NCBI GenBank assembly: GCA_051294905.1
Contig: CM119372.1
Location: 5,830,001-5,894,000, forward strand
DNA from: Botryllus schlosseri
Taxonomy: Eukaryota
Reading direction: 5' to 3'
Length of the DNA: 64,000 nucleotides
In this document: one piece after another, positions 3,849 through 61,424 of the stretch
Numbering within the stretch: the first letter of the stretch is position 1
Layout of the letters: the number at the start of each line of letters is the position of its first letter
Position numbers and translations under genes: made by a program
Notes under the pieces: generated by a model
Database searches by the model: none
Told to the model about the DNA's origin: nothing
The model's input: only the letters and a program-made list of their open reading frames with translations

Positions 3849-4058
3849 CAATTACCTGCGACACACCTCCGAACGTCTCAAACGGGACTATAGGTGATGG
3901 ATGTTACAGTGGAAGTCCACTAAATGCAACATGCACAGTAACCTGTAATAATGGTTACTGTATTAGCGGGGATGAGGAGGTCACGTGTGTCGATAAGCCT
4001 GGATCAGATGATACAAACAGCAAAGGAGAATGGAACTACGGGGACACGACGTGTACAG
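3849..4058 (+). CDS. Sushi/CCP exon A (210 bp, phase 1-1)
   Basis: catag|CAATTACCTGC...TGTACAG|gtaact; ITCDTPPNVSNG...CTVTCNNGY...CVDKPGSDDTNSKGEWNYGDTTCT. Confidence 0.9.
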
Positions 4059-4161
4059 GTAACTGAGTACAATGGGTTGGTTATTTTCATATTGCTATAA
4101 TTAGTACATTGTTCACTATTCGCGGCGTAATGAAATAAAAGTTTTGAAATTGATTTAACAG

Positions 4162-4371
4162 CCATTACCTGCGACACATCTCCGTCTGTTGCGAACGGGA
4201 TTATAGGAGATGGATGTGACAGTGGAAGTTCACTACATGCAGCATGTCCAATAACCTGTAATAATGGTTACTATATTACCGGTGTAGAAGAGGTCACATG
4301 TGTCGATACGCCTGGATCAGATGATACAAACAGGGTAGGCGAATGGGACTACGGCGGCACAACGTGTACAG
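4162..4371 (+). CDS. Sushi/CCP exon B (210 bp)
   Basis: aacag|CCATTACC...ACAG|gtaact; open frame ITCDTSPSVANG...GEWDYGGTTCT. Confidence 0.9.
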
Positions 4372-4411
4372 GTAACTGAGTACAATGGGCTAGTTATTTT
4401 CTTGTTGCTGT

Positions 4412-4861
4412 TGTAGCGTCCTGATACGGCATGCCAAGACCTAACAGGAACTTCGTCGTCGGGACCTCGCCTTTCCGCGGTCGCACGCACCGGTAACACA
4501 AATCCACATTGCTTCATACGCATATATTCACATAACGACATGACCTCGCAAAACATACAAATTGGCACGAAACCCAACCAACTACGTTACACACATAAAC
4601 AATGCAAAAAACCCAGTAGCCTTGTCAACCCTAGACACTTCCTACTGTACTACCCCACTTGAACTATACGGGTACTACTTCAACTTCAAACCACAACATA
4701 GGCTACTCGCTCACAACCAGCACCTCCAGCCACACTCCCAGCCAGACCAAGAACTTTTCTCCTTCTCCCCAGACTACCACGTGCAACCCACATACCGATC
4801 ATTCATTCTAGAAAAAGCTAAACGACAACACAACGTGATCACTGATCACCAGGGCGTTACA
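4412..4861. mobile_element. Solo LTR copy 1 (Gypsy-like, 4-bp TSD CTGT)
   Basis: TGTAGCGTCC...GGGCGTTACA termini with CTGT on both sides; absent from the homologous A-B intron. Confidence 0.8.
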
Positions 4862-4869
4862 CTGTAGTG

Positions 4870-5817
4870 CAGTGGTTCTCAACCGGGGGTCCGCGGACCC
4901 CTGGGGGTCCGTGAAGCATTTTCAGGGGGTCCGCGAAGCCTCTGAATTTGTAAAATGATTGTCAGCCTAATTTTTATTTATTCTTTAATTACAGGAAAAG
5001 CATGAACCAGATTCGCTTCGTAATTGTTAAAACTTTAGAACTCAAATCAGTCAAATGGTCGTCAGAGATGAAATATCCGACTGTGCAATCTCATTTTATT
5101 TGTCAAATTGCCAATAGCATTCTGTTGTAAACATATTGCTGTTTAGAGATGTTTGCTGGGGTTTGTGGAAAAATGAAGTGTTGGAGATAGCAAAATCAAA
5201 CAGGGTGACTTCGCAATGCTTGCAAAACATTTTCAATTTGTTGTTGTCAGTCTCAGCAAATTAGTAAACAGTCGTTTAAAACATAAATTCCTTAATTTTT
5301 TCCTAATCTGTCCCCATGAAGGAATTGAAATCTCGCCACGAAATCCATTTTCTTCTGTGATATAACCACTGAATACCTTCTATATGAGATGCTATAGGAT
5401 ACAGATAGAAATGACCAGGTTGGACGTGATATATCCATTGAAAAATCACACCAAAAGCTGTCATCTGAAGCGTTGCGCGTCAATATTACATTTGCTACCA
5501 ATATATATTTGTGGAAATCGATATTCGGCATTCGTTCATATCAAATCGAAGACGTGGATTTTTAAGACAATAAATACAGCTCGAAAATTACCTTCGAAAT
5601 AATAAAATTCTACCCAGTTTCTACATACAGTGTGCTGAAATTTTCAAGAAAAGTCATTTTGTGGCTGTTTATCACTAGGCTGCAATTAATAATTACACGG
5701 GACAGATGGTGGTTGTACGATAAGTGAGCTAATTTTGAACGAAAACTTGAGGGGGTCCGCGGGGGTTAGTGACGGGCGAAAAGCGGTCCGCGAAGACGAA
5801 AAGGTTGAGAACCACTG
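4870..5817. mobile_element. Non-autonomous hAT element
   Basis: TIR CAGTGGTTCTCAACC; perfect TSD CTGTAGTG; related sequence near 35312-36140. Confidence 0.92.
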
Positions 5818-5880
5818 CTGTAGTGCATTGTTTACTATTCGCGGCGTAATGAAATAACAGTTTTGAAATTAATTTAACAG

Positions 5881-6090
5881 CCATTACCTGCGACACATCT
5901 CCGTCCATTGCGGACGGGATTATAGGAGATGGATGTGACAGTGGAAGTTCACTAGATGCAGCTTGTCCAATAACCTGTAATAATGGTTACTATAGTACCG
6001 GTGTAGAAGAGGTCACATGTGTCGATACGCCTGGATCAAATGATACAAACAGCGTAGGCGAATGGGACTACGGCGGCACAACGTGTACAG
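5881..6090 (+). CDS. Sushi/CCP exon C (210 bp)
   Basis: Intact AG/GT sites, open frame, near copy of exon B. Confidence 0.9.
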
Positions 6091-6130
6091 GTAACTGAGT
6101 GCAATGGGCTGGTTATTTTCTTGTTGCTAT

Positions 6131-6574
6131 TGTAGCGTCCCTGATACGACATGCCAAAACCTAACAGGAACTTCGTCGTGTTCGTGTGCTCGGGACCTCG
6201 CCTTTCCGCGGTCGCACGCACCGGTAACACAAATCCACATTGCTTCATACGCATATATTCACATAACGACATGACCTCGCAAAACATACACATTGGCACA
6301 AAACCCAACCAACTACGTCACACACATAAACAATGCAAAAACCCCAGTAGCCTTGTCAACCCTAGACACTTCCTACTGTACTACCCCACTTGAACTACGG
6401 ATACTACTTCAACTTCAAACCACAACAAACTCGCTCACAACCAGCACCTCCAGCCACACTCCCAGCCAGACCAAGAACTCTTCTCCTTCTCCCCAGACTA
6501 CCACGTGCAACCCACATACCGATCATTCTAGAAAAAGCTCAACGACAAAACAACGTGATCACCAGGGCGTTACA
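6131..6574. mobile_element. Solo LTR copy 2 (4-bp TSD CTAT)
   Basis: Same termini and body as 4412-4861, with CTAT on both sides. Confidence 0.8.
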
Positions 6575-6641: not shown

Positions 6642-6851
6642 CCATTTCCTGCGACACATCTCCGTCTATTGCGGACGGGACTATAGGAGATGGATGTGAC
6701 AGTGGAAGTTCACTACATGCAGCATGTCCAATAACCTGTAATAATGGTTACTATATTACCGGTGTAGACGAGGTCACATGTGTCGATACGCCTGGATCAG
6801 ATGATACAAACAGGGTAGGCGAATGGGACTACGGCGGCACAACGTGTACAG
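6642..6851 (+). CDS. Sushi/CCP exon D (210 bp)
   Basis: Intact AG/GT sites; 5 substitutions relative to exon B. Confidence 0.9.
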
Positions 6852-6971
6852 GTAACTGAGTATCGTGGGCTGGTTATTTTCATGTTGCTATACTTAGTAT
6901 AGTACTGTTCACTATTCTCGGCGTACTGAAATAATATTTATAAAACCAATTTCACAGCCATTACCTGCGAC

Positions 6972-8743
6972 CAGAGTTGGATCAATAACAATATTTTAAT
7001 TTAATTACAATTACAAATACAATTACTTCCTTGCATGTTTTAATTACATTACAATTACAATTACTCAATGCTAAAAATATCAAATTACAATTACAATTAC
7101 AATTACTGTTAAATATGTAATTAATTACAATTATAATTACATTATAATTACTTTTAAACAGGTAATTGATTCAGTAAAGAGGTGTTCTTTGACAACCGTA
7201 GCGACGTACTAGCAACAATCTCAAGCTATTCATGTTCCATTCCTGATATGTAGAATACCCTATAAATAAAAAAAACTCGAACGTATTCGAACTATTCCTA
7301 ATCATGAGTACTGAAAACTACAAGCATAGAAAAATGTTTCAAGCGACTGTTAGGAACCACAGGTTTGAGCGACTAACAGCGAATGGGCTACAGGACAGTC
7401 AATGAAATGTAATCAAACGATTAGGCTACTCAGAGCTGAGTCATTTTTTTTCTATTTGTCGAATGTTAAATGTGCAATGAGGGATATGATATTCTTTTTT
7501 GCCTGCACCATCGAGATGCTTTGACGACGGAGTTGCGATACGGCCGTGAGGTCATCTAGTCAGGATAATGAAGTGTAATTGGTAAGTCGTCAGCGATAAG
7601 GATGATACCGATAAGTTGCGTAAAATTAAAATAAATGCAAAAGGAAAGAACCTCCTAATAACTAAGAATTACAATATTTTGGTTCGCATTTACATTTTCA
7701 GCTGCTCGGAAACTGTTAGATTGCATTTGATGAACATTAGGGTGCGAAAAGTTTCTGGCTCAGTAGATTTGGTCAAGATTGGAGGTAAGATTGGGATAAC
7801 ATCTCAACAAATGCGTGATCAAGCCTTTGATGAAGCCTTGGTTAGAAACTTGAATTTTTTTTTGCTTTTGTTGCAACAAGCCTCGGTACTGGTCAAAGAT
7901 TTAAAAAAAAACTTTGACCGTGGTGTAGGAAATGGTTCAGCACAGGTTTCAGAAGAGTTTATTTGTTGTTCATCTATGTTTGAAATATAAAGATTTAGTT
8001 TAGCCCACTGGTTCTCTAACTTTTTTAGACACGCCCCCCTTCGTGTCAGTGAATATTTCGTGACTCCTTATCATCATAGCACACAATGAAACCAGAAAGT
8101 TAGCAATCCTTACATATAGTTTGATGGTATGGAAGGTTATGACTGTTGATGAGAGAATTCTCCAATACGAAATTCAGACTATACACCGAGCAATAACCAT
8201 AAAACGGAGGTGAATCGGGCCAAGCGCGGAAAAGATTTCAGTTCACTGGACCGTCGCGCCCCGTTCAGATGCTTTCACGCCGCCCAGTGGGGCACGCCCC
8301 CAGTTTGAGAACCACTGGTGTAGCCTATATTGTAATTCACAAAGTTTTCTCTGTTGCTACTGAAGTATGGGAAACAGTTTAGCGTGACTGAATTATCTAT
8401 AGTTATAACGCAGCACGCATAGAACACCGATGTAAATAGGCTAATTATTACATGTGGTGACTGTTTACTAAGGCCTTAAGGCCCCTCGTCGTCATCCTGG
8501 TTCGTACCGGATTTTCACTGGTGCGACGAATAAATGATTGATTAAATGAATATTTATGTTGTGATTGTCAGGTTTCCATGAAAATGTAATTGAGATTGTA
8601 ATTGAGCAAAATTTTGATCAAATTACAATTACAATTACAATTACACAAAATAGAAATGCTTCAATTACAATTACAATTATAATTACATGAAAAAATGTAA
8701 TTTACATTCAGCTCAATTACAAATTACAATTGATCCAACTCTG
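6972..8743. mobile_element. Non-autonomous hAT-like element inside exon E, with ATTACA subterminal repeats
   Basis: 15-bp TIR CAGAGTTGGATCAAT; perfect TSD CCTGCGAC. Confidence 0.93.
8006..8317. mobile_element. Nested hAT MITE
   Basis: CACTGGTTCTC / GAGAACCACTG; TSD GTTTAGCC/GTGTAGCC. Confidence 0.75.
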
Positions 8744-10214
8744 CCTGCGACATATCTCCGTTCGTTTCGAACGGGATTATAGGAGATGGGTGTGACAGTG
8801 GAAGTTCACTAGATACGGCTTGTCCAATAACGTGTAATGCTGGTTACTATATTAGCGGGGATGAGAAGGTCACATGCGTCGATAAGCCTGGATCAGATGA
8901 TACTAACAATGAAGGTGAATGGGTCTACGGTGGCACAAATTGTACAGGTATTAATTATAAACAAGCGGATGGTTCCTTTCATGTCCACATACGCTGCCCA
9001 CTATACTATGAGTTCCGAAAAAATATTACGATTGAGATATACTGCCCTCCCGATACGCTTTCACCTGCCTGACAGTTACTGTTCTCGCGGGAACTACTAT
9101 ATTCATATTGGTCTTGCATAGACCGTTAAGGCGCAGGCATATATTCTGTTGCAAGTCCCCGTCAAAATTGTTGGCAAGGCGATGGAATATATGGATTTTA
9201 TGGAATTTATTCGATTTCTTTGATTGTTGATACATTTGGTGACGTTTAAATAGTCGGCGTGTACTTCATCAGCATTGTGGCATAATGAGGCTTGAGTCGT
9301 CGCTAACTATGGTGCAGATTAATATATCACTTCACTGAAATGTAGGGTTGTAATTTGCAATTGACGTCACGTGACGTCATCGGTTCATGTTTGCGTTAAC
9401 AAAGGACATTTAAAAAAGGTTCGCGTTCACACGTACCTGAACATTTACGAGGTTCGATACTCAATAGATTTGGCAGTAGTCGACAGCTCGATGCGGTGGC
9501 TGTTGATCACCGGCATTCTACGGGTGTAAAAAGGTATGTTTTCAGGCATTTCCGGAACCGGATGCCAAAGCTAACAACTCTAAAATTTTCAATATGGCAA
9601 ATATAGGACTTCATGAAAATATGGATTTTATGAAAGTTTTGATAAAACTGTCCATGAGAATTCAGAATATATTGTATGACGCGAAAAAACAAGCTTGCAT
9701 AGCAAAATTCCTACATTAGGAATTTACGATAAAACCTCCGGGGGTACTAGGACCATCTTTCAAGGGGTTCACGAAAGGCGAATGAAAACGCGAAAACATC
9801 GAGTAATTGAATCTGGATTTAGGGCCAATCTGCGGATTGATCAACTCAGCGATTAGATAATATACGATATCCAACGATAGATAGATACTCCTGGCCAGCA
9901 AAAGTAGAGTGTCCTTGGGTATTAACATATTTTGGAATCCGTGCAATGACTGGGCGTTTTTCTGTGGCCACCGCTCGTCCATTTTTGTTACATCATGTAG
10001 ACGCCACGCGAGATCCAGGTGCATTTAGTTCAATGCTAATATATATACCAAATTCATTTCACTTTTAATTTGCCATTAAAAATTTCTGCATGGTTCAATC
10101 ACTGATAGAGTGTGTCACGCTGTCCGATAGGGACACAGTTTAATCAATAAACATGAACAATTAACATACTCGGTGTAAAAGGCCTAGTCACCCAGATACA
10201 AATACCATATATAC

Positions 10215-14365: not shown

Positions 14366-14428
14366 CCATTACCTGCGAAACATCCCCGGGTGTATTGAAC
14401 GGGATCATAGCAGATGGCTGTGGCAGTG
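14366..14428 (+). pseudogene. Truncated Sushi pseudo-exon F
   Basis: tacag|CCATTACCTGCGAAACATCC..., ITCETSPGVLNGIIADGCGS, after which homology stops. Confidence 0.8.
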
Positions 14429-14723
14429 ATAAAAATACTGCTGAAAAATGAGATGATGATACTATATCACATATAAGTTGCTGGGTAGTCTAATTCTCCG
14501 CAGAAAGTATGTATTACATAAAACCGAATAAAGTTCAGTGTACATTTGTTTTAACGACATATAGGTTAATATTAAAACGATTCGATGAAAACTTGACTAT
14601 CAACTTTAATGTTATTTTGAATCCTCAATTTTCAATTTCTTATTTGTTGGTTCATGTTCATATATAGATGTATAAAAACATTGAATTCGCAATATCTCAT
14701 TTAATATAACATAAATTTCACAG

Positions 14724-14938
14724 CCATTACCTGCGAAACACCCCCGAATATACTGAACGCGATCATAGCGAATGGATGTGGTAGTGGAAGTCTATTAGAT
14801 GCAACATGTTCAGTAACTTGTAATGATGGTTACTATATTGGGGGGGGGGGGATGAAGAGGTCACGTGTGTCGATACGCCTGGATCAGATGATACAAACAG
14901 TGTAGGCGAATGGGACTACGGCGGCATACTGTGTACAT
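14724..14938 (+). pseudogene. Sushi pseudo-exon G
   Basis: A 12-G run (14840-14851) adds 5 nt and shifts the frame; the donor reads ACAT|ttacct instead of ACAG|gtaact. Confidence 0.85.
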
Positions 14939-15049: not shown

Positions 15050-15259
15050 CCATTAACTGCGACACATCTCCGGTCGTTGCGAACGGGATTATAGGAGATG
15101 GGTGTGACAATGGTAGTTCACTCGATGCAGCATGTCCAATAACCTGTAATAATGGTTACTATGTTAGTGGAGATGAAATGGTCACATGTATTGATACGCC
15201 AGGATCAGATGATACAAACAGGGTTGGCAAATGGGACTACGGCGGCACAACGTGTACAG
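15050..15259 (+). CDS. Sushi/CCP exon H (210 bp)
   Basis: Intact splice sites; lies within ORF 15037..15402 (INCDTSPVVANG...GKWDYGGTTCT). Confidence 0.9.
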
Positions 15260-29808: not shown

Positions 29809-30018
29809 CGGTGACATGTACTGAAGATCCTCACTTTTCTAATGGAGCTGTCGATGCACCATGCCAGTCCAACAGTACCTCCGGTACCTCATGTTATATA
29901 ACATGCAACGAAGGCTATTATTTGAGCGGCAATGGATATGTAACATGTGTCGACACTAATGTAACAGATGATACAAACGAAGACGGGAAGTGGAACTACG
30001 GAGACACTGCATGTACAC
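29809..30018 (+). CDS. Divergent Sushi/CCP exon I (210 bp)
   Basis: ttcag|CGGTGACATGT...TGTACAC|gtaaga; VTCTEDPHFSNG...DTNVTDDTNEDGKWNYGDTACT. Confidence 0.88.
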
Positions 30019-32671: not shown

Positions 32672-32881
32672 CCATTACCTGCGAGACATCTCCGGAAGTA
32701 CAGAGCGGGTATATCGCAGATGGATGTCACAGTGGAAGTCTATATGATGCTACATGTCATGTTACCTGCTATTATGGTTATTATATCAGGGGGGATGAAG
32801 TCGTCACGTGTATCGATATACCGGATTCAGGTGATACAAACAAAGAAGGCGAATGGAACTACGGTGGCATAAACTGTACAG
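32672..32881 (+). CDS. Sushi/CCP exon J (210 bp)
   Basis: cacag|CCATT...ACAG|gtatta; ITCETSPEVQSG...GEWNYGGINCT. Confidence 0.88.
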
Positions 32882-33432: not shown

Positions 33433-33639
33433 CTATGAAGTGTGGAGTAGCTCCTTATATTCCGAATGGATTGTATAGGGAGGGATGCCCCTCTGATACA
33501 GAAGTCAATACAACGTGCACCATAACGTGTAACGATGGGTATTATCGGAATGGAAGTAACACAGTTGAATGCATTGATGCCGACCTGGAGAGCAATACCA
33601 ATGTGGATGGAGAATGGAATTACGATACTGCATGTATAC
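33433..33639 (+). CDS. Sushi/CCP exon K, second subtype (207 bp)
   Basis: tttag|CTATGAAGTGT...ATAC|gtaagt; MKCGVAPYIPNG...DADLESNTNVDGEWNYDTACI. Confidence 0.88.
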
Positions 33640-44338: not shown

Positions 44339-44346
44339 GCTAGAAC

Positions 44347-44640
44347 ACTATGGAATCAGGGATATTGCAGCAACTCTACTCGAGAACTACCTGGCAAACC
44401 GCAAACAATTTGTTAAACTGGGGACATCAAGAACGACTACCAGAGATATAACTTGTGGAGTGCCACAGGGCTCAGTCCTTGGACCGACTTTTTTCCTCAT
44501 TTATATTAATGATATTGTTAATGCATCTTTATTCCGCACAACCCTATTTGCTGATGATACTCACCTCTTTATAACCTCCAGCACTGTCGATGATTTGCAT
44601 GCATCTGTAAATAGGGAACTCCCAAAAGTATCGAGATCGC
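44347..44640 (+). pseudogene. Degenerate non-LTR reverse transcriptase, 3' part (CR1/L2-group-like)
   Basis: Continues KLE-HYGIR across the hAT insertion; GVPQGSVLGP...YINDI...LFADDT. Confidence 0.88.
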
Positions 44641-45950: not shown

Positions 45951-46359
45951 AATTTATCAATTGCGAATCATAAAACTTCGAAACATCAAAATCAAACCTG
46001 CAAACAGAAATATCTATAAAATGGCAAATATTGCAGAGTAGGCTATTTTAACATTCAAACGTGATTAACATACATCTTGGATGCTGTTTAGCCATATTTT
46101 AGGTTTCTTTTCTCAAAAGTAGTGCGATTTTAGAATTTCAATCTCTGAACCACAAAAGCAAAGTTTATATGGAATAAAGTCGATTTTTTATACTTACTGG
46201 TCCTAAGCAATACGGAAAAATTGGTTAGAACCTGGGAACAACAAGTTTTTTTGTTACATCGTGTAACATATTCACACACTCTATGCAGCGCCCACCCGTA
46301 ACTAAGTGAGCTGTATGCGATTTATAAATAGTTTCGTACAACACTTGCACCATTGTGAT

Positions 46360-48890: not shown

Positions 48891-49076
48891 CTACTAAGTG
48901 TGGAGTAGTTCCGAATATTCAAAATGGAGAGTATAGGGAGGGATGCACCTCTGACAAAAAGGGCAATGTAACGTGCATCATAACCTGTAAAGATGGGTAT
49001 TATCGGAATGGAAGTAACACAGTAGAATGTATTGCCAATGTGACTGGAGAATGGAAATACGATACTGCATGTATAC
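48891..49076 (+). CDS. Sushi/CCP exon M, copy of K with an in-frame 21-bp loop deletion (186 bp)
   Basis: ttcag|CTACTAAGTGT...ATAC|gtaagt; TKCGVVPNIQNG...VECIANVTGEWKYDTACI. Confidence 0.85.
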
Positions 49077-49394
49077 GTAAGTTGTCTATATATAGTGGTG
49101 TACTTCCGAGTAACGTTCACAAGTTACATGGATGATTGCAATATTTAATTCGTACACTCATATTAATATCATATAATATAGGCCTACTGATCATATTTCA
49201 TGAAAAAATATTTGTTAATTCAGATGGAACTGTCCAACATCCGTTTCTCGCTTGACTCTTCTCCTTGAGAATAGCATATGTTCCTACTTTGAAAAGTAAA
49301 CGAAACAGAAAATCGTGCAAGTTCAGTATAGCCTATGTAGCCTTGTTCACAACTCTTTCAAATTTTGAGTTCTACACCAAATTAATCCTTACAG

Positions 49395-49604
49395 CCATTA
49401 CCTGTGAGACATCTCCGAACGTACCGAACGGGTTTATAGGAGATGAATGTGACAGTGGAAGTGAATACAACGCAACATGTCAAGTATCCTGTTATGAGGG
49501 TTACTATGTTAGCGGAGAGAAAGAGGTCACGTGCGTCGATAAGCCTGATTCAGATGATACAAACAGTGGCGGGCAATGGAACTACGGTGACACTACGTGT
49601 ACAG
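49395..49604 (+). CDS. Sushi/CCP exon N, paralog of L (210 bp)
   Basis: tacag|CCATT...ACAG|gtagta; lies within ORF 49265..49630. Confidence 0.88.
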
Positions 49605-49813
49605 GTAGTAACTATACGGACTATTATTAAGGGGATGTTTATTTTCATGTTCACATTCTCTCTCAAATAAACTTTGCCTGCTGAAATAATATTTAAATAC
49701 GTCATATTCTCATTAAAATATAACACTACCATCAATCATGACTTTATTAAATAAAGAACATAAAATGACTAATTAACATGGTGCGCGGACTGATATTTAC
49801 TCTCTGTTTATAG

Positions 49814-50020
49814 CTATGGAATGTGGTGAACTTCCGAGTTTTCCAACCGGCGATTTTGGTCCTGAATGTTCTCCTGGTAATAATGTCAATACAACGTGCG
49901 ACATAACCTGTAGGGATGTGTATTATAAGAATGGGGGTGGCACAGCAACATGTGTTGATGCCGACTCGGCGAGTAATAAGAATATGAATGGAGAATGTGA
50001 ATATGATTCTACATGTACAC
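49814..50020 (+). pseudogene. Sushi pseudo-exon O (K-type) with lost donor
   Basis: Donor reads ctaagt instead of gtaagt; conserved Trp is changed to Cys (GEC) and GYY to VYY. Confidence 0.75.
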
Positions 50021-50628
50021 CTAAGTTTTGACTAAATTTTGAGTAAAGTTTAGATGTTGCATGAACGATTGCATTTATTATTTGGCACATTTAAACTCAT
50101 ATCACCGAAAAGGTATCAATAGGTGGATAAAATATTTGGAAAAGGTAATTGACTTTATGTTGCAAAGTCTTGCCACGGGCAACACTAAAACACCCAGTCG
50201 ATCGATCATCGTTCATAAATACTGTTTTATACTGTCATCTCTTCAAAGTCATTCCTGGATCTTTATCCACCCGGACTATATGCTTGCTCTAAATTGCGTC
50301 TGCTATATGAAACTTTAACCCTGCTGTACACCAAGAAGTTAATAGGAATTCAGTCAAGGGTGTTATGGTACGTGCGTATACTTGAGCTATAGTTAATAGT
50401 TACAAAGTCATTGAGTTGAGCTGATGCAAAAATAGTATCAATTAGATAGAAGCTGCGGATCTTACAAATGGACAGTAGGCCTATATGAGGATGGGTGTTC
50501 CTATCGCAGTAACGTCAAAACAACGTCCGTCAAGACCTAAGACGATGGGTATTATCGAGGCGAGAGTATTTGTGTTTCCATGCTGGCGCTAACGAAATTG
50601 GTTATACAATTACGAGCTATGGGTCAAA

Positions 50629-51168
50629 AGGGCTGTAACCAGTGACAAGGCTCCGAGTCACAAGTCAATCACACTTTTATAGTTTTGACTCGAGTCAATT
50701 CGAGTCATTTTCAAATCACCACCGAGTCGAATCCGAGTCCAAATCATCGAGCAGAGGGTAAAGTCCGAGTCATAGTATTATATGGCTTGAGTCCGAGTCC
50801 AAGTCATAGCGTTGACTGCGCAGTTTCCAGTTAAAGTCTTGTTAGAGCCACTATTATAACTCTGTTTAGTGATATAAAATGGTTCGAGTTTACAATATAC
50901 TAATTTTTCTCATATTTAGCAATTTCTGATCGCATTTTCAAGTATCAGTACCAATAGACGAAATCCCAATACGATGGTTACTATGCTATTTTTCGGAAGT
51001 ACAATGAAATGTCGGTATTGGCCGTCTGAGTCTCGAGTCATATGACTTTGTTCGAGTCATACGCAATGACTCGAGTCCAAGTCGAGTCGAGTCATTTCCG
51101 TATTTCGAGAATATGACTTGAGTCAAGTCGAGTCATCAGAAAATCGTGACTCGAGTCATTACAACCGT
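50629..51168. mobile_element. Probable MITE with GACTCGAGTC subterminal repeats
   Basis: Clusters of GAGTC/GACTC at both ends; termini degenerate and boundaries approximate. Confidence 0.5.
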
Positions 51169-51881
51169 GGGGGTCGACTACCCGCGACTCGCTAGCCGCA
51201 TGCGGCTTTTTCACGCACCTACTGCGGCTTTCTACTTTTGAAGCAAACTTAATGTATTTCGAATGATTAATTTTTATGATATAGTTCTTCGCGAGTGATT
51301 TGTTTCCGTCAAGTAATGTTTTCGTGTATTTTTATTCTGCCTAAAGGTAGACTATAACTAGCAAAGTATTGTCGCATTAGCAACTTTTATCGTGCTTGCC
51401 ACTCGCCAATGGTACGTTGGATTTCCCCTCGTAATGTGGGCCCAGAAAACCGCTGCGTCAGCGCTAGTGTGCCAAGATATTGATCACCATCGAGCCAATA
51501 CAGTATTTTGATTCGCCAGTTTAGTTGCCACCTAACTCCCACGATACGTCGTTATATCAGGATTATATCAGCGGGACTGTAAGGCGCTATAACTCATTCC
51601 CCAAGTTTCGTACATCATGTCGGCTTTTTTTCTCTATAAAGAGAATTTCATGACATAGGTTTATTGACCTTGAGATTCCCCTCGTGCTGTGAACGAAAAT
51701 ATGAATTATCAAAGAGCAGTTACTGAATTCTATAAGTCATAGAATGCCATCATATTATTTGTTTATGCAGGTTATGTAGGCTACTTGACAATATAGAATT
51801 TACTTCATAACAATCAATGCAGTATTAAACGGTAATTTTCTGGTCATTTATTCTTTTACTTATTGACTCTATTTACTCTAG

Positions 51882-52733
51882 CGTACATGATGCTGGATAT
51901 TGACGCGCAAAGCTCCGCGGTGAAAGGAATGGATAATAACTTGACAGTCCGGATTAAATCCATTCCTCAGAATCTTCCTGTTAATATCTCTGCTTTCGTG
52001 ATCTCCTCGCCGAACAATACCTTGAAGGGAACAGCGTTAGAGCGGTATTCTTACAATGATGCAGGCGGTTATTTTACATATGGCATCACCATTAGGGCTG
52101 GGCACAATGATTCGAGTACTCGAATCTGAATCGAGTATTAATTTTAATGATTCGAGTCGAGTACTAAAACACGATTTTTTCGAGTACTGAAATTATACGC
52201 TCCTCGCCACTTAAAGTTAATTTATCAACGAGAATTGTATATTCGATACTAATTTTCGCTATTGATGCCTTGAAACCTTGATTGACCGCATCGTAGCATA
52301 CGAAACATATAGTACAAATCAACGAACGCTGCTGGAAATAGCACATTTCCGAAGTCATGAAATTCCCACAGCATTGTCACCAATTGCAATGAAATCGTTG
52401 TCGTCGAAAAAATACCAAGGTATGTTTAATGTAATGGATAACAGGCATTATATTCTTTGTGGTCGCATAAAAGATATGTATTTGAACTTTGACTGATTCC
52501 ATTATGTTATGACGTCATAATGAGTGATACTCGATTACTCGACTCGACTCGAAGCATTTTACGTGATTCAGAATCGAATCACTCAGGTACTCGATTTTGC
52601 CCAGCCCTAATCACCATAACGGACGTAGTTGAATCAGATGAGGGGAATTACCAATTCGAATCATCTGCTAGGTCTGAATTTGATGTATATCCAAATGTAT
52701 CTTTTGCGGGGACGCAATATCTGTACGTTCAGG
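51882..52733 (+). CDS. Ig-like exon 1 (no Cys) interrupted by a MITE; 51882-52092 + 52618-52733 = 327 bp
   Basis: tctag|CGTACATG ... CAGG|gtatgt; the restored frame reads ...YGITITDVVESDEGNYQF..., with the Ig DxGxY motif. Confidence 0.8.
52093..52609. mobile_element. MITE inside Ig exon 1
   Basis: TIR TAGGGCTGGGCA; perfect TSD ATCACCAT; second copy at 55250-55765. Confidence 0.95.
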
Positions 52734-52794
52734 GTATGTCATGAAAATTGCGAACATTAACAGGAAGGATTGGTAAGTTCATGCCAATTTACAG

Positions 52795-53097
52795 TTATTC
52801 CTGAAAACTTCCAATTTTATATTAACGAGACGGTGATAAATGAGGATATCACATACGTGAGAGGAGACCCTAACAGCAATGTAACATGTAGCGCTGACGG
52901 AAACCCCGAACCCGATTACAAATGGGGTGCATCAGGTGTGGAAAACCTGCCTGGTGGAGTTTCCACAAATAAGCAAATTTTACATCTCGAGAAATCGTAC
53001 TTTACGGATAATGGCACGTGCGTCTGCGGTGCATCAAATAATGTATCCGAAGAATACAACCAAACTCCAAATCGCTCGATATACATTGAAATCAAAG
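52795..53097 (+). CDS. Ig-like (I/C2-type) exon 2
   Basis: tacag|TT...AAAG|gtgagt; NVTCSADGNPEPDYKW...DNGTCVCGASN. Confidence 0.88.
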
Positions 53098-53283
53098 GTG
53101 AGTGTCCAGAAGCCTCTATATATACTCCTTTGCTATTATTCTCGCGTGTGTGATGTGCGATTACCACTTACTGCTTTTACTGCATTAAAACGTAGTAATA
53201 AATTTTACCTAATAATCGAACATTTATGTACGTATTCTATAGTGATTGTTGTATATTGGGATTTGAATTGATATAGACTAAAT

Positions 53284-53845
53284 CAGTGGTTCTCAAAGTG
53301 GGCTATAGTAGCTTACCTCTCGGAAGAATTTGAGACATGAGTTATAAAAACGAAGGTCGAGGTTTGGAGGCGTAAACATACGAACGGGGCGATACGTGGG
53401 CGTAAATGATGGTACGTTCAGCCAATTATATTTATATCTATATTACTCTTTGGATTGTGGTCAAGTTTATAAATGATGGAAGTTGATGGAAAAGTGACTC
53501 AATCCTTGACACATCCCAGTTCGCGAGTAGGGAAAAGAATCAAATCGACTAAATTCGATTTACGTATCAGCTCTCTAACTTATTTATGAATTCCATCAAC
53601 TTTGTAGAAGTGCATCCAGAACATACTTTACATGGCCATATTAAGTATGAAAAAATATGCATTTTAATTAGTTGAAGTAGAAGAAGTATATATAAAAATA
53701 GACTTCAGTAAATCAAACAATTTTATGAACCTTCATTCGTACGGTAAAATATTACTTCGTTACTGATGAACTTTTGCATTTAGGCGATAAAGATATATCG
53801 AGCTTGATATGGGGGAGATGTGTCAAAATAGCATAGGAACCACTC
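53284..53845. mobile_element. hAT MITE
   Basis: CAGTGGTTCT / GGAACCACTC; perfect TSD GACTAAAT. Confidence 0.8.
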
Positions 53846-53900
53846 GACTAAATGCTATTGAACAAATACTCCCTCTTGATAACGTATGTGACCTTGTTAG

Positions 53901-54212
53901 GAATTCCGGTTATTATTTCCGAAAATCAAAAATTCCCGCTGAATGACGATTTCCTCTTAAAATGCTGGATGGACGCCAACCCGATGCCGAGCATGGTTGC
54001 TTGGAGTACTGGCGGGGAGGAATATAATGACAGTGAAAATGCATTCGCGGTTGCCTCGAATATTGAGAATCGGGAAAACGGAAGCTACTATCAGTATCAG
54101 AACGAACTGACTTTATACTCGCAACTATGTGTCGGCAATCAGACCGTTGCATGCAAGCCATCCAATACCATTGGGGAAAGTGAAACGTCCGTCAATTATA
54201 CATTGAATGAAG
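53901..54212 (+). CDS. Ig-like exon 3
   Basis: gttag|GAATT...GAAG|gtaatt; LKCWMDANPMPSMVAW...VACKPSNTIGE. Confidence 0.85.
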
Positions 54213-54280
54213 GTAATTGACACGAAACAGAAATACGGTATGGCAATTTCTATACCTTCCGTTTTTTTAAATCTGCGCAG

Positions 54281-54442
54281 GCGCATACGATCTTCATCAA
54301 GATTCAATGACGTACATAACTTATCCTAGTGAATACATCACAAAAGCAGAGACGGATGAAGCCTGCAATCTATCGTCGGGACATCTCGTTTACATTACAA
54401 GCGACAGTCTGCAGCAATTTTTAGACACGAGAATTGACTACG
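54281..54442 (+). CDS. C-type lectin-like domain exon 1
   Basis: cgcag|GCGCA...TACG|gtatgc; ...ETDEACNLSSGHLVYITSDSLQQFL. Confidence 0.82.
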
Positions 54443-54502
54443 GTATGCGCTATTGATGCCCCATAGTTCAAGGTCGTTGGTAAACATTGTAGTTACATTC
54501 AG

Positions 54503-54685
54503 AATACTACATCGGAGCAGTGAAAGGTGCAGCTGGTAACTGGACTTGGGGTGAAAATGGAGATGCCGTTTCACTGAACAATTTCAACTCCACGGCTGAA
54601 AATGGAAGCTGTGCAATATCCACCGTGTATGGGTGGAAAGTAGTCAACTGCAACGAAACATTCCGATACGTCTGTCAACTGACAG
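54503..54685 (+). CDS. C-type lectin-like domain exon 2
   Basis: ttcag|AATAC...ACAG|gtgcct; YYIGA...WTWGENG...CAI...WKVVNCNETFRYVCQ. Confidence 0.85.
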
Positions 54686-55070
54686 GTGCCTTAGCTGTTG
54701 CCGTAGTAGGCTAATATTTGCAGACAGATAACCGGATCATTGATTACCGAAATAGACAAATTGCAAAATAGAACTTGGTTCGCCGATATTGTCGTATAAC
54801 TTAAACGGCGATCATGATCCCGTAGACTGCACCAGCATTTCAGAATCAGGAACAAAGCCAACAAGAAATTGATAATTAGATAAACAAATGACTACAAGCA
54901 AAGCTACACTGTAACTATCGGTGCATTCACCAGATTTCCACCATAACATAGGGAGCAAAGCAGGTCAACGGAATTTATTGACACAAAATAACGCTTCTAC
55001 ACCTATTCCTAGGGTTGCATTTAAAACAAATAATTGTTTAAAACACTTTGTTTGAAACCAAGTTTCAGAC

Positions 55071-56855
55071 CAGAGGTCTCGAACACTCGACCCGCGAGAA
55101 CATTTTGTGCGACCCGCGACGGGATTTTGGAATTTCAAGCATCCGACAATATATTCAAGTGCCACATATCTTTTTAAGATATAAGAACTTAAAGTACACC
55201 CTAAAACTACTATCAAAATCAGTGAACTCTCAACATACTACATTATCACCAGGGCTGGGCACAATGATTCGAGTACTCGAATCTGAATCGAGTATTAATT
55301 TTAATGATTCGAGTCGAGTAGTAAAAGATGATTTTTTCGAGTATTCAAATTATACGCTCCTCGATCCTCAAAGTTAATTTACTAACGATAATTATAGTTT
55401 TGGTACTATTTTCCACTCAGGAAGGCTTGAAACCTTGATTGGCTGTGTCGCAACATACGAGACATAGTACAAAGCTACGAACGTTACTGGAAATAACACA
55501 TTTCCGAAGTCACCATCATCCTACAACATTGCCAAGAAATGGAATGAAGTCTGTATGGTCGAAAAAAATACAAAATTATCTTTAATGTGACCGAAAACAG
55601 GCATTATGTTCCTTGTGGTGGCATAAAAGGTACATATTTGAACGTTGACACAGTGCATTCTGTTGTGACGTCATAATGAGTGATACTCGAATACTCGACT
55701 CGACTCGAAGCGAAATACGTGATTCAGAATCGAATCACTCAGGTACTCGATTTTGCCCAGCCCTAATTATCACATCACTTTAAAAGCTATCATGCGGTAG
55801 AAGATCAGCTATTACGTCACATTTCTAGTTTATGATGATAAAACATGACCCGTCGATGACTCGTGACTGAAAATTGTGATTAGGTTCGGTGCGATCTTTC
55901 GTAAAATGACTTGATTTCAGATTGACTGGGTGATTAAATAAAAATGACTCGAGTTGAGTCGGGCCAAACGTTAAAATTAGAGAAGGACTTGCGACTCGGA
56001 ACGGTGACTTGGTAATCCTACGGACGCAACAATGTATGAAACTATTATGGGTAATAGTAATATATCAAAAGGTCGTAGCTTGCGTTGCGTGTGATATATA
56101 GCCATCTAATCAGGTCAGTATGGCAACCATAGGCCTTATATGACCCTCGTGACGTATATAGTTGGTTACATGCTGGGTGTTGTTTGTTCTCTTTATCCAT
56201 GTTATTATCGGTGGCGAGTGAGGTAGTCGCTCCACAGCTGTAACACCAATGAATTCATCGGCGATCGGACATTTATATTCCAAGGATTCTTAACTAGGGT
56301 CCGTCGACCCATTGGGGGAACGGAGCACCACATCAGGGGGTACGAGATGCATTTTGCAATTAGGCCTATATGCTATGGAATAGTTATATGCTGTGGAATA
56401 CTTATCACGACTATATCACAACCAGGATTAGGCTACACCGCTCAAATGCTCTGATGTCAGATCAATCTTCAGTAGATTTTAAAAAGTTCTACATAAAATT
56501 GTGGCACGTCCAAGGTCCACTAACTGCAATATTATAATCTGACAGTTTGACAATGTCATGATGCATCCTCTCGCATGATGTCTATAATTCATTATTTTAA
56601 CAAATTATGCCGGGCACAAAAACAGTTTTATTCATATATATTTGAAAATGTGATTATTTTCCGTGTCAAGCGTGAATAGTACAATAGTAAATTACATTTT
56701 CACGATGTTTGTGTAATGCCTGTCTACAAGCTTCCGTCAAATAAGGCCTACTTGGAAACTATAGATTGAATATTCCTATTATTGATGCTGCGGCCCGCTG
56801 CGTCATCAACAACTGGGAAATTGGCCCGCGAGCACATTTGAGTTTGAGACCTCTG
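55071..56855. mobile_element. Non-autonomous hAT element, middle layer of a nest
   Basis: CAGAGGTCTCGAAC / GTTTGAGACCTCTG; TSD 6/8 match. Confidence 0.75.
55250..55765. mobile_element. Second copy of the TAGGGCTGGGCA MITE
   Basis: Perfect TSD ATTATCAC. Confidence 0.93.
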
Positions 56856-57289
56856 TTTTAAACAAAGGCCGTTTAAAAAAGAATTGAGTTTTTTAAGTTG
56901 TAAAATTATGCCATATTTGTGTAAATGCTTTCCAAAAACATGTTGTATGAGCCTACGGACAATTACCACCCAATTTAGCTGATGTTATCGATATTAGATA
57001 TGGGATGGTTGGAACCCTCAAAATAGTCGGTTCAACAGTTATAGTACAGTATTTTACTGAAGTAGTTACATTTGCCCTATATTTTCAATTGTCAATGTCA
57101 ATCCACTATGACGTCACAATTGAATATACGTGACGTCATGGCTTGAAAACATAAAAACATGTTTTAAACAAGGGCCTTGTTTTAAACATGTTTGTTTCAT
57201 ATGCAACCGTATACATAATAATTGGTCTATTTGGCTCGTTTTTGCCCATTAGAATAGGTGTGAGAGCACAATTTTGTACTATACAGTTC

Positions 57290-57830
57290 CGATTACCTGA
57301 TTCGCACTCTACCTCAAATTACTGCCCTAATCATTGAGTGTCAACCTTGAGACTTGGCACAGCGTTCGATACTAAAATCAAGACATACCGTGCAAAAGCT
57401 TATGACGGATCTAGGTAAGGAGCATCGTTAAAATCAATAGAGACCAATACCGGCTTTGCGTATAATCTGTTAGCGATAAATGACGAGTCAGCTCTCACTC
57501 GAATTAGGAAACGAAATTACCACTAACACTGTTCAGTGACAAACTTAAAACTTGGTACAGCGTTCGATACTAACATTAAGACTTACCGTGCCAAATGTCA
57601 TAACCGATCTCAATATTGAACATCGTCAAACCAATGGATACCAATACCGGCTTTTGAGTAAAATCTGTTTGCGATACATGACGGATCAGCACACACTCAA
57701 CTTCGGAAACGGAATTACTACCCTTTAACTTTAAGTAGAAACCCTGAAACTTGGGGCAGTGTTAAATACCACCATCACGACATGACATAACAAGTTTCAA
57801 GAGCTTTCATGGTGTGAAACCCCATTAAAA
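57290..57830. repeat. Diverged tandem repeat, period about 198 bp, about 2.5 units
   Basis: ATTAC...ACTTGG..CAG.GTT..ATAC block recurs at about 57319, 57516 and 57714. Confidence 0.75.
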
Positions 57831-58964
57831 TCGACCTATACCAGCAAAGGTCGACTCAACGCATATGACGGTAACAGAGTTCAGCTATAGATACGATTGT
57901 TACATCACACCTTAAGGGCACAGAGCTATCGTGCCCCGGTTGCTCGGTAATTTTATGAATAGGAGAGAGTAAATCACCGTTTCTTTATTGGGCGCGGCTT
58001 TGAGAGAATAGACAGTGAAAGCTTGTTATGAGCGCTACCGGGGCAAGCCCCGGCTAGGCATTCGCAAAGCGAAAACACAGAAGAGAATTCGATTTTCGCA
58101 GAGACTTCGCTATATATGGGCATTTACAAGCGAAAGGACAAGAAGTATACGATTTTCGCTGTGATTTCGGTTTATATAGATAGGTGTGCGTCTATAAATG
58201 GTAAAGAATTGTTATTGAACAGAATTTCAGGTGGGGCAATGCCCCAGTTGCCCTATACGACGAGCCGCCACTGACTCTACGCTACGGTGAAGTCAGTCAG
58301 TCAGAAGTCAGTTTACCTTCCAGTGTATAACAAAGTAACAATAAATATTTATATGCGTTAAAAACAATACACAATATCATCTAATGCGCAGTCGATATAC
58401 ACATTTCCATTAAAATACAGAATATATGGAATGAATTCATCTCTTCACTAACACGGAGTGTCATTTCAAATCTTGCCGCTTGTACTAGAATTGATCTGCG
58501 CGATGAGCTCTTACAAACGCTCCTGAATATAACTTTCTGCGAAACCGCAAAGGTGGCGTGGTGTTGCGTTCGTTCGATCAAGCACGTTACACTATAATCA
58601 CTACCAAAATTAATTCCGCTGACTGAATGGTTCGGAATGGGTCTATACTTATTACGCAGTTGAACATGAAGAGATCCATTCTTAAGTATGAATGACATGT
58701 CGCTTTCATTTTGACTGATGCATGATAGATGGTGTATGCAACTGTTGCCGACGCACACACAGCGTCATTACGTTGAACGACTCATCGCCGTCAACCATTT
58801 TGCACACTTCATTGTGCCGCTTACACCCTTTCGTAATTAACACCAGTCAAAATTTTCATCCCTCATACAGATTTTGTGGAGACAGGTTAAATGCCTAGTG
58901 TGCTTCTGCTTTTACATCAGGACCACGCTCTGAACGTCCAACTCAACTTTTCGTTAAATTCTAG

Positions 58965-59197
58965 CGTCTGGTTATCCAGAGGATGTACAAACCACCACAC
59001 GACATTGCGAGCCCAATCTTATTACCGTATCGTGGGAGGCTGCCGATGAGCGATTTAAAACGACGCAATATCTAGTCAATTTTACCAGCATCAATTCAAC
59101 AGTAGAAGACAACCACGTCGATGCCATTGGTATGGAATCGAGTCCACAAGTATATAATTTCTCTGATGCGAAACCAAACACAGAATATCGAATTGAG
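58965..59197 (+). CDS. FN3 exon (phase 1-0)
   Basis: tctag|CGTCTGG...GAG|gtaaca; ITVSWEAAD...YLVNF...DAKPNTEYRIE. Confidence 0.85.
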
Positions 59198-59256
59198 GTA
59201 ACAGAAAACTCCTAAGTTGATGTGTACGAAGTATCACTTTACCTTTCTAAAATCAG

Positions 59257-59439
59257 TTGTATGCGGCTGTCGACGTCTGCCTTCCTGAATACAGACCGAT
59301 GGAGGCGAGGTTAGCTACGACAGGATTCGATATTCCAGAGAAAGTGCGCGATGCATCGATGTCCAACGTGGAAAGTAACGAATGCTCCTTGTCGTGGAGC
59401 TATAACGAAGAATTCCAGTGGCAGATTGAATCCTATCAA
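59257..59439 (+). CDS. FN3 exon (phase 0-0)
   Basis: atcag|TTGTAT...CAA|gtaaga; LYAAV...PEKVRD...CSLSWS...IESYQ. Confidence 0.85.
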
Positions 59440-59845
59440 GTAAGATTTCTTATATTTCCATACAATACGTAAATGTATCTTCATAGCCAGGTCACGGGTT
59501 TTGAGACTTCAATGCCGGAGTTAACATACATTAACGACACGGATCAATCCCTTTTTCATACTGTGGTAGGCCTATGTAGAATAACCTGGTTATCTATAGG
59601 CAACACCAATGATTACTCTGTATTCTTCCTTATTATTTTTATTTTTATTGTAATCCACTGGCATGCCAAATACCCAAGAAAAAATATTGTGATGATATAG
59701 AATGAATATATAAAGTCCATTACATACCCATTGTTTCGACTTTTGTGGCGTCACAATGTTGATACCGAAGAATCGAGGCTGTCCCAGCTCTTTGTGCCCC
59801 TTTGCTATGCCTGCCCAGTGTCCATGCGATTTTCGATGTCTACAG

Positions 59846-60044
59846 GTAGAAGTAACGGAGACAGAGGTGAGCACTGGCGAATCAACAACTAGAAGAGACC
59901 TATGCAACCCTGGAGCCGAGACATCGTGTGTATTCCCAATGCAACCGAATTCCAGATACAGCGCCAACATCACCGCGAAATCGTCTTGTGATGTTTTAGG
60001 AGAAGCCGTAGTAGCATCCGACGGCTGTGAATCAGACGTCGCAG
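59846..60044 (+). CDS. FN3 exon (phase 0-1)
   Basis: tacag|GTAGAA...GCAG|gtacag; VEVTE...MQPNSRYSANITAKSSC. Confidence 0.85.
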
Positions 60045-60107
60045 GTACAGTACCCACTTGACTAATGCATACATTTTTTATAACTTGTTATCCCCTGCCA
60101 CGCAAAG

Positions 60108-60213
60108 CCCCCGAAGAATTGGTTGTCGCGGAGCCCGTAAGCAGTAATGTCGAAGCTAGGAACGGCTTTACGATTACTGTACCACCGCAAGATCAACGAA
60201 ACGGAATCATAAG
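60108..60213 (+). CDS. Membrane-proximal FN3-like module exon (phase 1-2)
   Basis: caaag|CCCCC...ATAAG|gtataa; PEELVV...FTITVPPQDQRNGII. Confidence 0.75.
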
Positions 60214-60862
60214 GTATAATAATACAATTGAAAAGTATATTCATATTGAAATGAGCTCGAATATTTTCGGCTGACACTCGTCAGGGGTAATCGTCACAAC
60301 TAGTAGAGAATTGGAAAGAACATTGTATATCAACAATCGTATCACAAAATATGACGTCACCAGCATGAAATTTCGTGAATGAGAGAGTGTTCAATGAACT
60401 ATTTTTAGTGGTACACGTACTCCTTTTGTTGACAGAGTTTTGGTTGGTGTATTTTGATAAAAGTCGACTCCAAGGCACACAAATGGAACTGCGAACGGCC
60501 TCGCCCAACGATTCGAAATCGGTCGTCTCGATAATTATTCGCACAAATCGGATTATCTAACAAAGTTTGCCGATGGCAGAATTAATGGCCTTTGATCGAT
60601 CAGCATCGTTTTTATAGACAACCCAACACTTTCATGGGGTGAACAGCAAATTTTCATATTTTTTGTTGTTTATCTTTATATAATGATTAGAAACTTTCTT
60701 CTCCTGTAGCAATGCGGCTACTGGTTGGAATTGAACCAAAATTGGTGTGTAGGCTTAAATTAGGTAAACTAACATTGTTATCAAGTAGCCAGTACGATTT
60801 GAGAAAAAAGACATTTTTGAAGACCCCTAATGCTCACGTCACATCCATGAAAATCGTTGCAG

Positions 60863-61032
60863 CTGCATCTTTGTGTACGTGACTGTTGACAATTCAGAAG
60901 ACGCAAGCAATAGTCGGACGCCAAATAGTAACTCGCTCGATTCTGTTGCTGGCGAATCTCGTGTATACGCTTCCAATAAGTTAGTGTTGCACAATAAGTA
61001 TATGGAGCCGACATTCGGTCCTATCATCATCC
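60863..61032 (+). CDS. Membrane-proximal module exon (phase 2-1; 3' boundary uncertain)
   Basis: tgcag|CTGCATC continues NGII-S-CIFVYVTV...; candidate donor C|gtatgc at 61033. Confidence 0.6.
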
Positions 61033-61342
61033 GTATGCTTGCAGGGCAGCAGACGGATTCCAGTATACTGTCGGGGCCGACCAGTCATCATCATCTTGCG
61101 TCACGAACCCGACATCGAGAAGAGAAAGGGCGAATGCCGAATCGAGCCAGAGCCCAGTATCTGCACAAAACATTGAACTAAAACCTAACCAATTCTACCG
61201 TTACTACCTGAAATCCAGCACGCCGCATGGCACCGACTTTTATATCATCCGATCAAGTGAAATCTCGGCTATAATTGCTACGAGTAAGAAATAGAAATCG
61301 CACTCATTTAAATGTACCCTACACTGTGTTATATGTATACAG

Positions 61343-61424
61343 ACTACTACGCGTGGATTGCTGGAATCGTGGTACCGCTATTCCTTGTCACAATTGCGAT
61401 TGCTGTCTACTTTTGGCGCAAGAA
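61343..61424 (+). CDS. Transmembrane exon
   Basis: tacag|ACTAC...AAGAA|gtaagg; YYAWIAGIVVPLFLVTIAIAVYFWRK, a hydrophobic helix followed by a basic stop-transfer. Confidence 0.88.

Follow-up and report, generated by a model that had tools for sequence, protein, structure and literature searches.

Gene model and exon chain

We analyzed a stretch of 64,000 nucleotides from the tunicate Botryllus schlosseri (GenBank assembly GCA_051294905.1, contig CM119372.1, positions 5,830,001 to 5,894,000 of the forward strand), hereafter called the window, in which positions are counted from the first letter. The DNA is intron-rich and eukaryotic (G+C ~36–43%), and its + strand carries a coding chain in the order Sushi(n)-Ig-Ig-Ig-CTLD-FN3-TM, where Ig, CTLD, FN3 and TM denote immunoglobulin-like, C-type lectin-like, fibronectin type III and transmembrane parts, respectively. 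This exon chain is a real gene encoding a long cell-surface protein. In the model running from the signal-peptide exon to the TM exon, 23/23 introns are GT-AG and agree in phase. A phase-compatible exon chain had been described in an earlier note made from the letters alone, and the coordinates given there were exact, the first Sushi exon beginning at 3849 and the TM exon finishing at 61424. The domain order proposed in that note was also found on the + strand, including the internal CTLD (with Ig exons 5΄ and FN3 exons 3΄ of it); its domain list needed correction in that 'Ig1' has no Pfam support and in that two FN3 domains plus a third FN3-like module, rather than one FN3, are present. The exons outside the Sushi array are as follows:

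3044..3125, + strand: predicted signal-peptide exon of 27 codons, starting with ATG and closed by a GTGAGA donor in phase 1, hydrophobicity 2.83
51882..52733, + strand: 'Ig1' exon, without Cys, weak fold assignment, interrupted by a 517-bp insert
52795..53097, + strand: Ig2 exon, Pfam Ig_3 at E 1e-6, just under the cut-off
53901..54212, + strand: Ig3 exon, Pfam Ig_2 at E 1.5e-4, just under the cut-off
54281..54685 (exons 54281–54442 and 54503–54685), + strand: CTLD, Pfam Lectin_C
58965..60044 (exons 58965–59197, 59257–59439 and 59846–60044), + strand: two FN3 domains in three exons, Pfam fn3
60108..61283 (exons 60108–60213, 60863–60979 and 61045–61283), + strand: membrane-proximal FN3-like module of receptor-phosphatase type (the stalk), three exons, Styela homology
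61343..61424, + strand: TM exon, with basic residues at its end and a donor in phase 2

The stretch from Ig2 to the TM exon comprises 706 codons with no stops and with intact splice sites, and when Ig1 is skipped the frame is open for 1494 residues from the signal peptide to the TM; the model measures ~1500–1600 aa up to the TM. The Sushi, Ig and CTLD exons are all phase 1-1, and two transposon-filled introns of 14.5–14.7 kb part the Sushi clusters. By tblastn, each of the 3΄ modules is present once in the window. The signal-peptide exon, which the earlier note had suggested looking for in the flanking DNA, lies inside the window, 5΄ of the first Sushi exon, and is the most hydrophobic of 12 + strand candidates running from an ATG to a phase-1 donor (1.92 at the next distinct locus); no second convincing signal-peptide exon was seen among these 12, in a terminal-exon scan that was not exhaustive. 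The hydropathy of the TM exon is 2.6, compared with at most 0.81 elsewhere in the model, and the protein, with a signal peptide and one TM helix, has the type I layout of a receptor-type protein tyrosine phosphatase (PTP). Heavy N-glycosylation had been claimed for the entire ectodomain. Overall, the 38 sequons in 1550 residues were matched by 3/1000 shuffles, and the claim also holds for the Ig and CTLD parts, to which the excess is confined; it does not extend to the Sushi and FN3 parts, where 172/1000 and 775/1000 shuffles, respectively, reach the observed count.

Stalk module and homology to Styela clava receptor phosphatases

When the last stalk exon was compared with 1.84 billion proteins, four matches were obtained: two fragments, an FN3-repeat protein that is not related, and a protein of Styela clava that carries two PTP domains. 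The Styela protein (LOC120336019, E 1.6e-6; Ig + FN3 + two PTP domains) is the only long eukaryotic match, and this match, together with a score of 37 bits for the stalk against the Styela module profile (shuffle maximum 6.3), upholds the likeness to receptor tyrosine phosphatases that had been proposed for the juxtamembrane segment. The homology extends into the second FN3: pairwise comparison of the second FN3 plus stalk with the Styela proteins gave 24–27% identity over 240–300 residues (E 1e-13 to 1e-15), the blastp score was 73.9 bits (maximum 25.8 in 100 shuffles), and the second FN3 scored 12.6 bits against the Styela profile (shuffle maximum 5.5). The two fragments, P0009 and P0011, are short genomic predictions. 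In the alignments, P0009 starts in the last stalk exon, crosses an intron and ends in sequence that is read off frame and looks like the TM exon of the window, and in P0011 the intron that separates the last two stalk exons has kept its place; the exon layout is therefore common to other genomes. The FN3-repeat protein, P0012, has a secretion-sorting tail and was dropped as a relative.

A search with the Styela stalk region returned LOC120336019 itself and two paralogues, all of which carry PTP domains (3/3), and the catalytic motif of the first PTP domain is intact in 4/4 Styela sequences. N-terminal CTLDs are added in the longer isoform of LOC120336019 and in the two paralogues. Among Atlas clusters compared by language-model features, the look-alikes of the Styela module were Fn3_PTPRU (0.91), PTPRT (0.90) and a further cluster (0.89), and the nearest structures in the PDB to the Styela catalytic part were PTPRA, PTPRS and LAR, with CD45 lower. 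By way of this Styela module, the window gene would share, indirectly, the arrangement of an Ig/FN3 ectodomain with a membrane-proximal module of Fn3_PTPRU type. The stalk exon itself had no sequence match in the PDB. In P0013 (XP_039259560.1), an Ig-Ig-FN3-FN3-stalk cassette occurs three times in the predicted ectodomain, so the 'juxtamembrane' module also sits far from the membrane. A very high-copy repeat (60222–60800), with a depth >15,000 in X1, one of the public runs described below, lies in the intron that separates the first stalk exon from the second.

Ig-like, C-type lectin-like and FN3 exons

Neither Cys nor Trp occurs in the 'Ig1' exon, and it is matched neither by Pfam Ig models nor by the Styela Ig profiles; its place in the chain and a motif of the DxGxY type, which are all that mark it, weakly suggest an Ig-like domain. 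A homologue search with the Ig3 exon yielded none among 38 candidates. The second CTLD exon lies above the Pfam cut-off (25.3 vs 22.6 bits), and the CTLD retains four Cys. EPN, QPD and WND motifs for Ca2+/sugar are absent from the CTLD, which is therefore predicted to bind protein, probably, rather than Ca2+/sugar. The first FN3 exon also lies above its Pfam cut-off (30.7 vs 25 bits).

The Sushi array

A profile built from 13 exons of the window detected 15 Sushi exons at 3849–50020, all in + orientation; 13 of them are whole, one is split over two frames and one is truncated. On the - strand of the whole window it found nothing significant. Eleven of the 15 are intact (open frame, AG/GT ends, phase 1-1), and four (S5, S6, S7 and S15) are broken:

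3849..4058, + strand: S1, intact, Pfam Sushi 22.1 bits, AG/GT, 210 nt
4162..4371, + strand: S2, intact
5881..6090, + strand: S3, intact, recent tandem copy including introns
6642..6851, + strand: S4, intact
6958..8947, + strand: S5, interrupted close to its 5΄ end by an element of 1772 bp
14366..14430, + strand: S6, truncated remnant
14724..14938, + strand: S7, frameshift in a G run, GT donor lost
15050..15259, + strand: S8, intact
29809..30018, + strand: S9, intact, Pfam 26.3 bits, most divergent of nine equal-length exons compared
32672..32881, + strand: S10, intact
33433..33639, + strand: S11, intact, Pfam 29.2 bits
33965..34174, + strand: S12, intact
48891..49076, + strand: S13, intact, 7 codons shorter than S11
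49395..49604, + strand: S14, intact, Pfam 25.9 bits
49814..50020, + strand: S15, open frame, donor GT replaced by CT in this copy

All four exons scanned passed the curated Pfam Sushi cut-off, and six cysteines, as in the selectin type of repeat, are kept in all 13 aligned repeats. S1 has a seventh, unpaired cysteine at a place occupied by tyrosine in the other 12. The S11–S12 block is duplicated as S13–S14 (81% over 803 nt). Pooled over the 36 pairs of nine equal-length exons, dN/dS was 0.55, which suggests moderate constraint on the Sushi exons; the recent copies S2–S4 have too few differences for dN/dS to be judged. Protein searches with the Sushi profile gave eight generic matches, including a selectin-like fish protein, factor H and a Sushi-VWA protein, and its matches in the PDB were CR2/CR1/factor H; such generic matches single out no orthologue. 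An AlphaFold model of the Sushi alignment had a pLDDT of 42.7. A weak further Sushi remnant (50472–50528, E 0.7), which holds a stop, lies between S15 and Ig1.

Insertions and lesions in the window copy

Ig1 had been read as an uninterrupted exon, which proved incorrect: it holds a 517-bp insert with a stop, at which the frame read through the insert ends (model residue 871).

52093..52609, no strand assigned: hAT-type miniature inverted-repeat element, 517 bp, in Ig1, with terminal inverted repeats and an in-frame stop

The insert is flanked by an identical 8-bp target duplication (52085–52092 and 52610–52617), and a duplication of 8 bp is the rule for hAT elements. A second copy, 84% identical, lies in a later intron near 55250–55765, and very high depth with loose ends at 52093 and 55765 indicates many copies elsewhere; the element thus combines the short terminal inverted repeats, 8-bp duplication and high copy number of non-autonomous hAT-type elements. 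The 1772-bp insert in S5 (6972–8743) likewise has inverted ends and an 8-bp target duplication. Each of the affected exons could be skipped without loss of the reading frame. Nine in-frame cryptic GT-AG pairs could excise the Ig1 insert, and no such excision was seen among the 15 joints listed (690 more exist). The window copy is an insertion allele, which is either null or yields a shortened receptor by in-frame skipping of Ig1. The frameshift of S7, situated in a long run of G, might be an assembly error, yet the donor is also gone.

Other mobile or repetitive elements were observed in the window. An element of 3.6 kb at 22223–25854, in the S8–S9 intron, has inverted ends, an 8-bp target duplication and three consecutive long open reading frames (ORFs; 23160–25321), two of which were scanned and had no Pfam match; it is probably a decayed DNA transposon. 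At 41533–44100, a long hAT transposase frame (170 + 684 aa, one stop; DUF4371 and hAT dimerisation domain in Pfam), for which no matching pair of terminal inverted repeats and target duplications was found, is nested between reverse-transcriptase fragments at 40602–40892 and 44250–44651. A tandem satellite with a 5-letter unit and a repetitive - strand ORF occupies 27046–27414, and similar units occur near 50700–51170 and 55850–56000.

Public reads and contigs

We compared 4 of 24 public runs (X1, X2, X18 and X23) with positions 44001–64000. X1, X2 and X18 are contig sets, and X23, of which ~6% was read, is the sole raw RNA run among them. The X1 pieces follow exon edges (51880–52093, 52793–53054, 53899–54214, 58963–59195 and 61045–61283), each of these five stretches starting and stopping no more than a few letters from a predicted exon edge, or where a contig ends. 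In X1 record 3, the 5΄ part of Ig1 and Ig2 are 119 letters apart, where a spliced, insert-free form would give 113, an unspliced form 174 and a form containing the insert 699. X18 record 9 has 1 difference in 256 letters of Ig2, and the X18 bin depths (0 / 5.09 / 2.17) are close to those predicted for S14(part)-S15-Ig1(no insert)-Ig2 (0 / 5.11 / 2.18), on the assumption that one contig explains the bins, in a set that also contains intronic pieces. Three alternative structures for this record fail the bin depths, and a Sushi exon spliced directly to Ig2 was ruled out in the same way. A Sushi-Ig1-Ig2 transcript without the insert is therefore implied by depth arithmetic rather than by a displayed joint, and S15 would be spliced in X18. 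The presence of spliced insert-free versions in the public runs indicates that the gene is alive in the species.

The bin depth at S13 was 0–0.35 in all four runs. X1 record 7 has 428 letters beyond the last stalk exon, and no piece of that length was found among the longest pieces listed on the window, which suggests that further exons follow the stalk. From the best-supported rows, seven fixed differences between the X1/X2 contigs and the window were identified at 54050–54375 (Ig3 and the first CTLD exon), four non-synonymous and three synonymous.

Comparison with named systems

The predicted and as yet uncharacterised Styela proteins (LOC120336019, with XP_077975271.1 and XP_039259560.1; LOC120336141; LOC120336018) share the homologous second FN3 and stalk before one TM, and their ectodomains are alike in having CTLD, Ig and FN3 domains. 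Their order, however, is CTLD x2–3, EGF (a weak Pfam match), [Ig-Ig-FN3-FN3-stalk] x1–3, TM, PTP, PTP, whereas the window gene has Sushi first and a single internal CTLD, and it does not carry the N-terminal CTLD array and EGF that precede the Ig-Ig-FN3-FN3-stalk in that group. In vertebrate PTPRU/T/K/M and Dep-1-like phosphatases with the Fn3_PTPRU module (PF23144), Ig and FN3 domains precede the module as they do here, the likeness of the module itself running through the Styela homologue; on the other hand, no MAM domain was seen in the window gene, nor any direct Pfam match to PF23144. To our knowledge, Sushi and CTLD are not part of PTPRU/T/K/M-type ectodomains.

Selectins have an N-terminal Ca2+-dependent CTLD, then EGF, then Sushi repeats. 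They resemble the window gene in combining a CTLD with Sushi repeats of six conserved Cys, and the top Sushi-profile match is a fish CTLD-EGF-Sushi protein; they differ in that the CTLD of the window is internal and without EPN/WND-type motifs, no EGF is seen and Ig and FN3 domains are added. Membership in the selectins was ruled out by the internal CTLD without an EPN/QPD/WND motif, in agreement with the distinction from selectins drawn in the earlier note. The Ciona protein vCRL1 is made up of Sushi plus Ig domains, and we know of no CTLD, FN3 or phosphatase stalk in it; no protein of that name occurred among the Sushi-profile and stalk-exon matches. In the accessible parts of two sources, vCRL1 is a polymorphic Sushi-containing protein tied to the blood system (PMC9265791) and is also cited as a Ciona Sushi protein (PMC5465252).

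The Botryllus fester co-receptors (FcoR), as far as the accessible text of the sources goes, have the order Ig-Sushi-Ig-Ig-TM (PMC12582321) and a length of 520–610 aa (PMC11507803). They are likewise tunicate type I receptors with Sushi and three Ig-like domains that vary between individuals, but in that text they have one Sushi and no CTLD or FN3 is described, and they are far shorter than the ~1500–1600 aa model; FcoR membership was ruled out on this architecture and length. HrSMLP1, in the accessible part of its source, is a DD3-3-like protein and so of a different kind (PMC6916515).

Homologue and HMMER protein searches returned no protein with the domain order of the window, and in the main texts, largely open-access, that were searched for this order and for tunicate receptor phosphatases, no description surfaced. 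Since mosaic ectodomains are common in invertebrate chordates, the surprise is limited; the domain order is apparently undescribed, on a known receptor scaffold. The phase 1-1 Sushi, Ig and CTLD exons and the lack of a protein of the same order in these searches fit the lineage-specific, exon-shuffled receptor that the earlier note had proposed.

Interpretation of the gene

Our preferred reading, with a probability of roughly 0.55, is that the gene encodes an exon-shuffled tunicate receptor tyrosine phosphatase with a Sushi extension of variable length and a predicted tail beyond the window. It would be one type I gene comprising a signal peptide, a Sushi array (11 usable here), three Ig-like domains, a CTLD, two FN3 domains, the stalk and the TM, and would most likely continue past the window into tandem PTP domains, as the Styela relatives do. 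An old membrane-proximal core may thus carry an outer part that was remade as phase 1-1 exons were shuffled and duplicated. In it, the Sushi array could serve as a spacer or as a rod for multivalent binding, its length changing by duplication (S2–S4; S11–S12 to S13–S14) and loss. The long glycosylated ectodomain would set the position of the phosphatase at cell contacts and its binding partners. We infer a single transcript over 58 kb and the phosphatase tail, and the domain types suggest an immune role.

A number of observations weigh against this interpretation. A receptor-type PTP is marked by a single or tandem PTP domain on the cytoplasmic side, with the catalytic motif HCSxGxGR; no PTP-like sequence was found in the window (tblastn of three Styela PTP tails, best E 0.31), and Pfam Fn3_PTPRU and PTP_tm are absent both from the three stalk exons of the window and from the Styela proteins. 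In the Atlas search, the stalk exon of the window itself gave only fn3-like leads, all <0.9. The identity to Styela is just 24–27% and does not reach beyond the stalk and the FN3 next to it; neither Ig1 nor the first FN3 yielded a signal when compared with the Styela domain in the corresponding place, and the scores of Ig2 and Ig3 against the Styela profiles (9.1 and 6.6 bits, respectively) are generic. The Styela proteins had no Sushi match, and their CTLDs are N-terminal. The Styela stalk-region search covered proteins of 1045–3327 residues, so that short-tailed relatives could not appear in it. As for expression, none of the contig sets X1, X2 and X18 is recorded as RNA; the X1/X2 contigs differ from the window by 5–13% and may be paralogues; no exon–exon joint was seen among the 15 listed (690 more exist); and the depth of X23, at the fraction read, was 0–0.03 over the Ig3, CTLD and FN3 bins. 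The reads, compared at 44001–64000, bridge neither of the two introns of 14.5–14.7 kb between the Sushi clusters.

The tail is the point at which other readings diverge. A non-catalytic receptor with the same ectodomain and a short tail, possibly with tyrosine docking motifs, would signal via recruited kinases or phosphatases, or serve in adhesion or as a decoy, and we regard it as possible but unlikely. It agrees with the finding of no catalytic exon in the window (no convincing cytoplasmic exon was found up to 64000 among 12 phase-2 acceptor candidates after the TM), and in vertebrate SUSD1 a short tail follows Sushi domains and a stalk of similar kind. FcoR receptors, in the accessible part of the source, use tails with tyrosine motifs of ITIM/hemITAM type (PMC11507803). 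However, every full-length stalk homologue retrieved has PTP domains, although the search was biased to long proteins. Transfer of the stalk module onto a receptor tyrosine kinase tail is far less credible. Swapping of ecto- and endodomains is described for tunicate receptor families, together with intergenic recombination in FF/FcoR, in the accessible text of one source (PMC11507803), but no kinase occurred among the matches of the stalk exon or the Styela stalk region, and no ORF or candidate exon after 61424 is kinase-like, with no search aimed at kinases having been made.

Two further readings concern the locus rather than the tail. The window copy may be a dead allele or a decaying paralogue, with transcripts arising from other alleles or paralogues; this is compatible with any of the tails above and is a serious possibility, if somewhat short of an even chance. 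The stop in Ig1, the four broken Sushi exons and the near-absence of X23 reads over the Ig3, CTLD and FN3 exons speak for it, whereas the confinement of the lesions to in-frame-skippable exons, the intact codons and splice sites from Ig2 to the TM, and a near-identical allele (X18) that appears insert-free speak against it. It is improbable, in our view, that two genes are present, in which case the signal peptide would belong, with the first Sushi cluster or clusters, to a protein of its own, secreted or anchored in another way, and the start of the 3΄ receptor would lie further on. The two transposon-filled introns, and a read comparison that covered 44001–64000, leave room for it; yet the scan of 12 candidates, though not exhaustive, offered no second convincing signal peptide, no 3΄ module has a second copy, and the S11–S12/S13–S14 block duplication ties the middle Sushi cluster to the last.

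Within the preferred reading of a receptor phosphatase, a more specific and decidedly speculative version is that the gene is a tunicate CD45/CD148-like phosphatase with a genetically variable ectodomain length. Sushi exons would be gained by tandem duplication and lost by transposon hits and skipping, and alleles would set the distance of the phosphatase at close contacts, thereby tuning the threshold of ITAM/ITIM-type receptors; if so, the locus would represent allele-encoded, size-based control of innate recognition.

Of note at this locus are a stalk of phosphatase type, a Sushi array that varies and a polymorphic insertion. With a non-catalytic tail, the gene would be of modest interest, as another invertebrate receptor made by exon shuffling. 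With a phosphatase tail, it would be a concrete candidate for such an enzyme, with complement-type, Ig and lectin-like modules combined in an outer part that differs from copy to copy. With either tail, the gene is a clear case in which phase-symmetric exons let a gene absorb transposon insertions.

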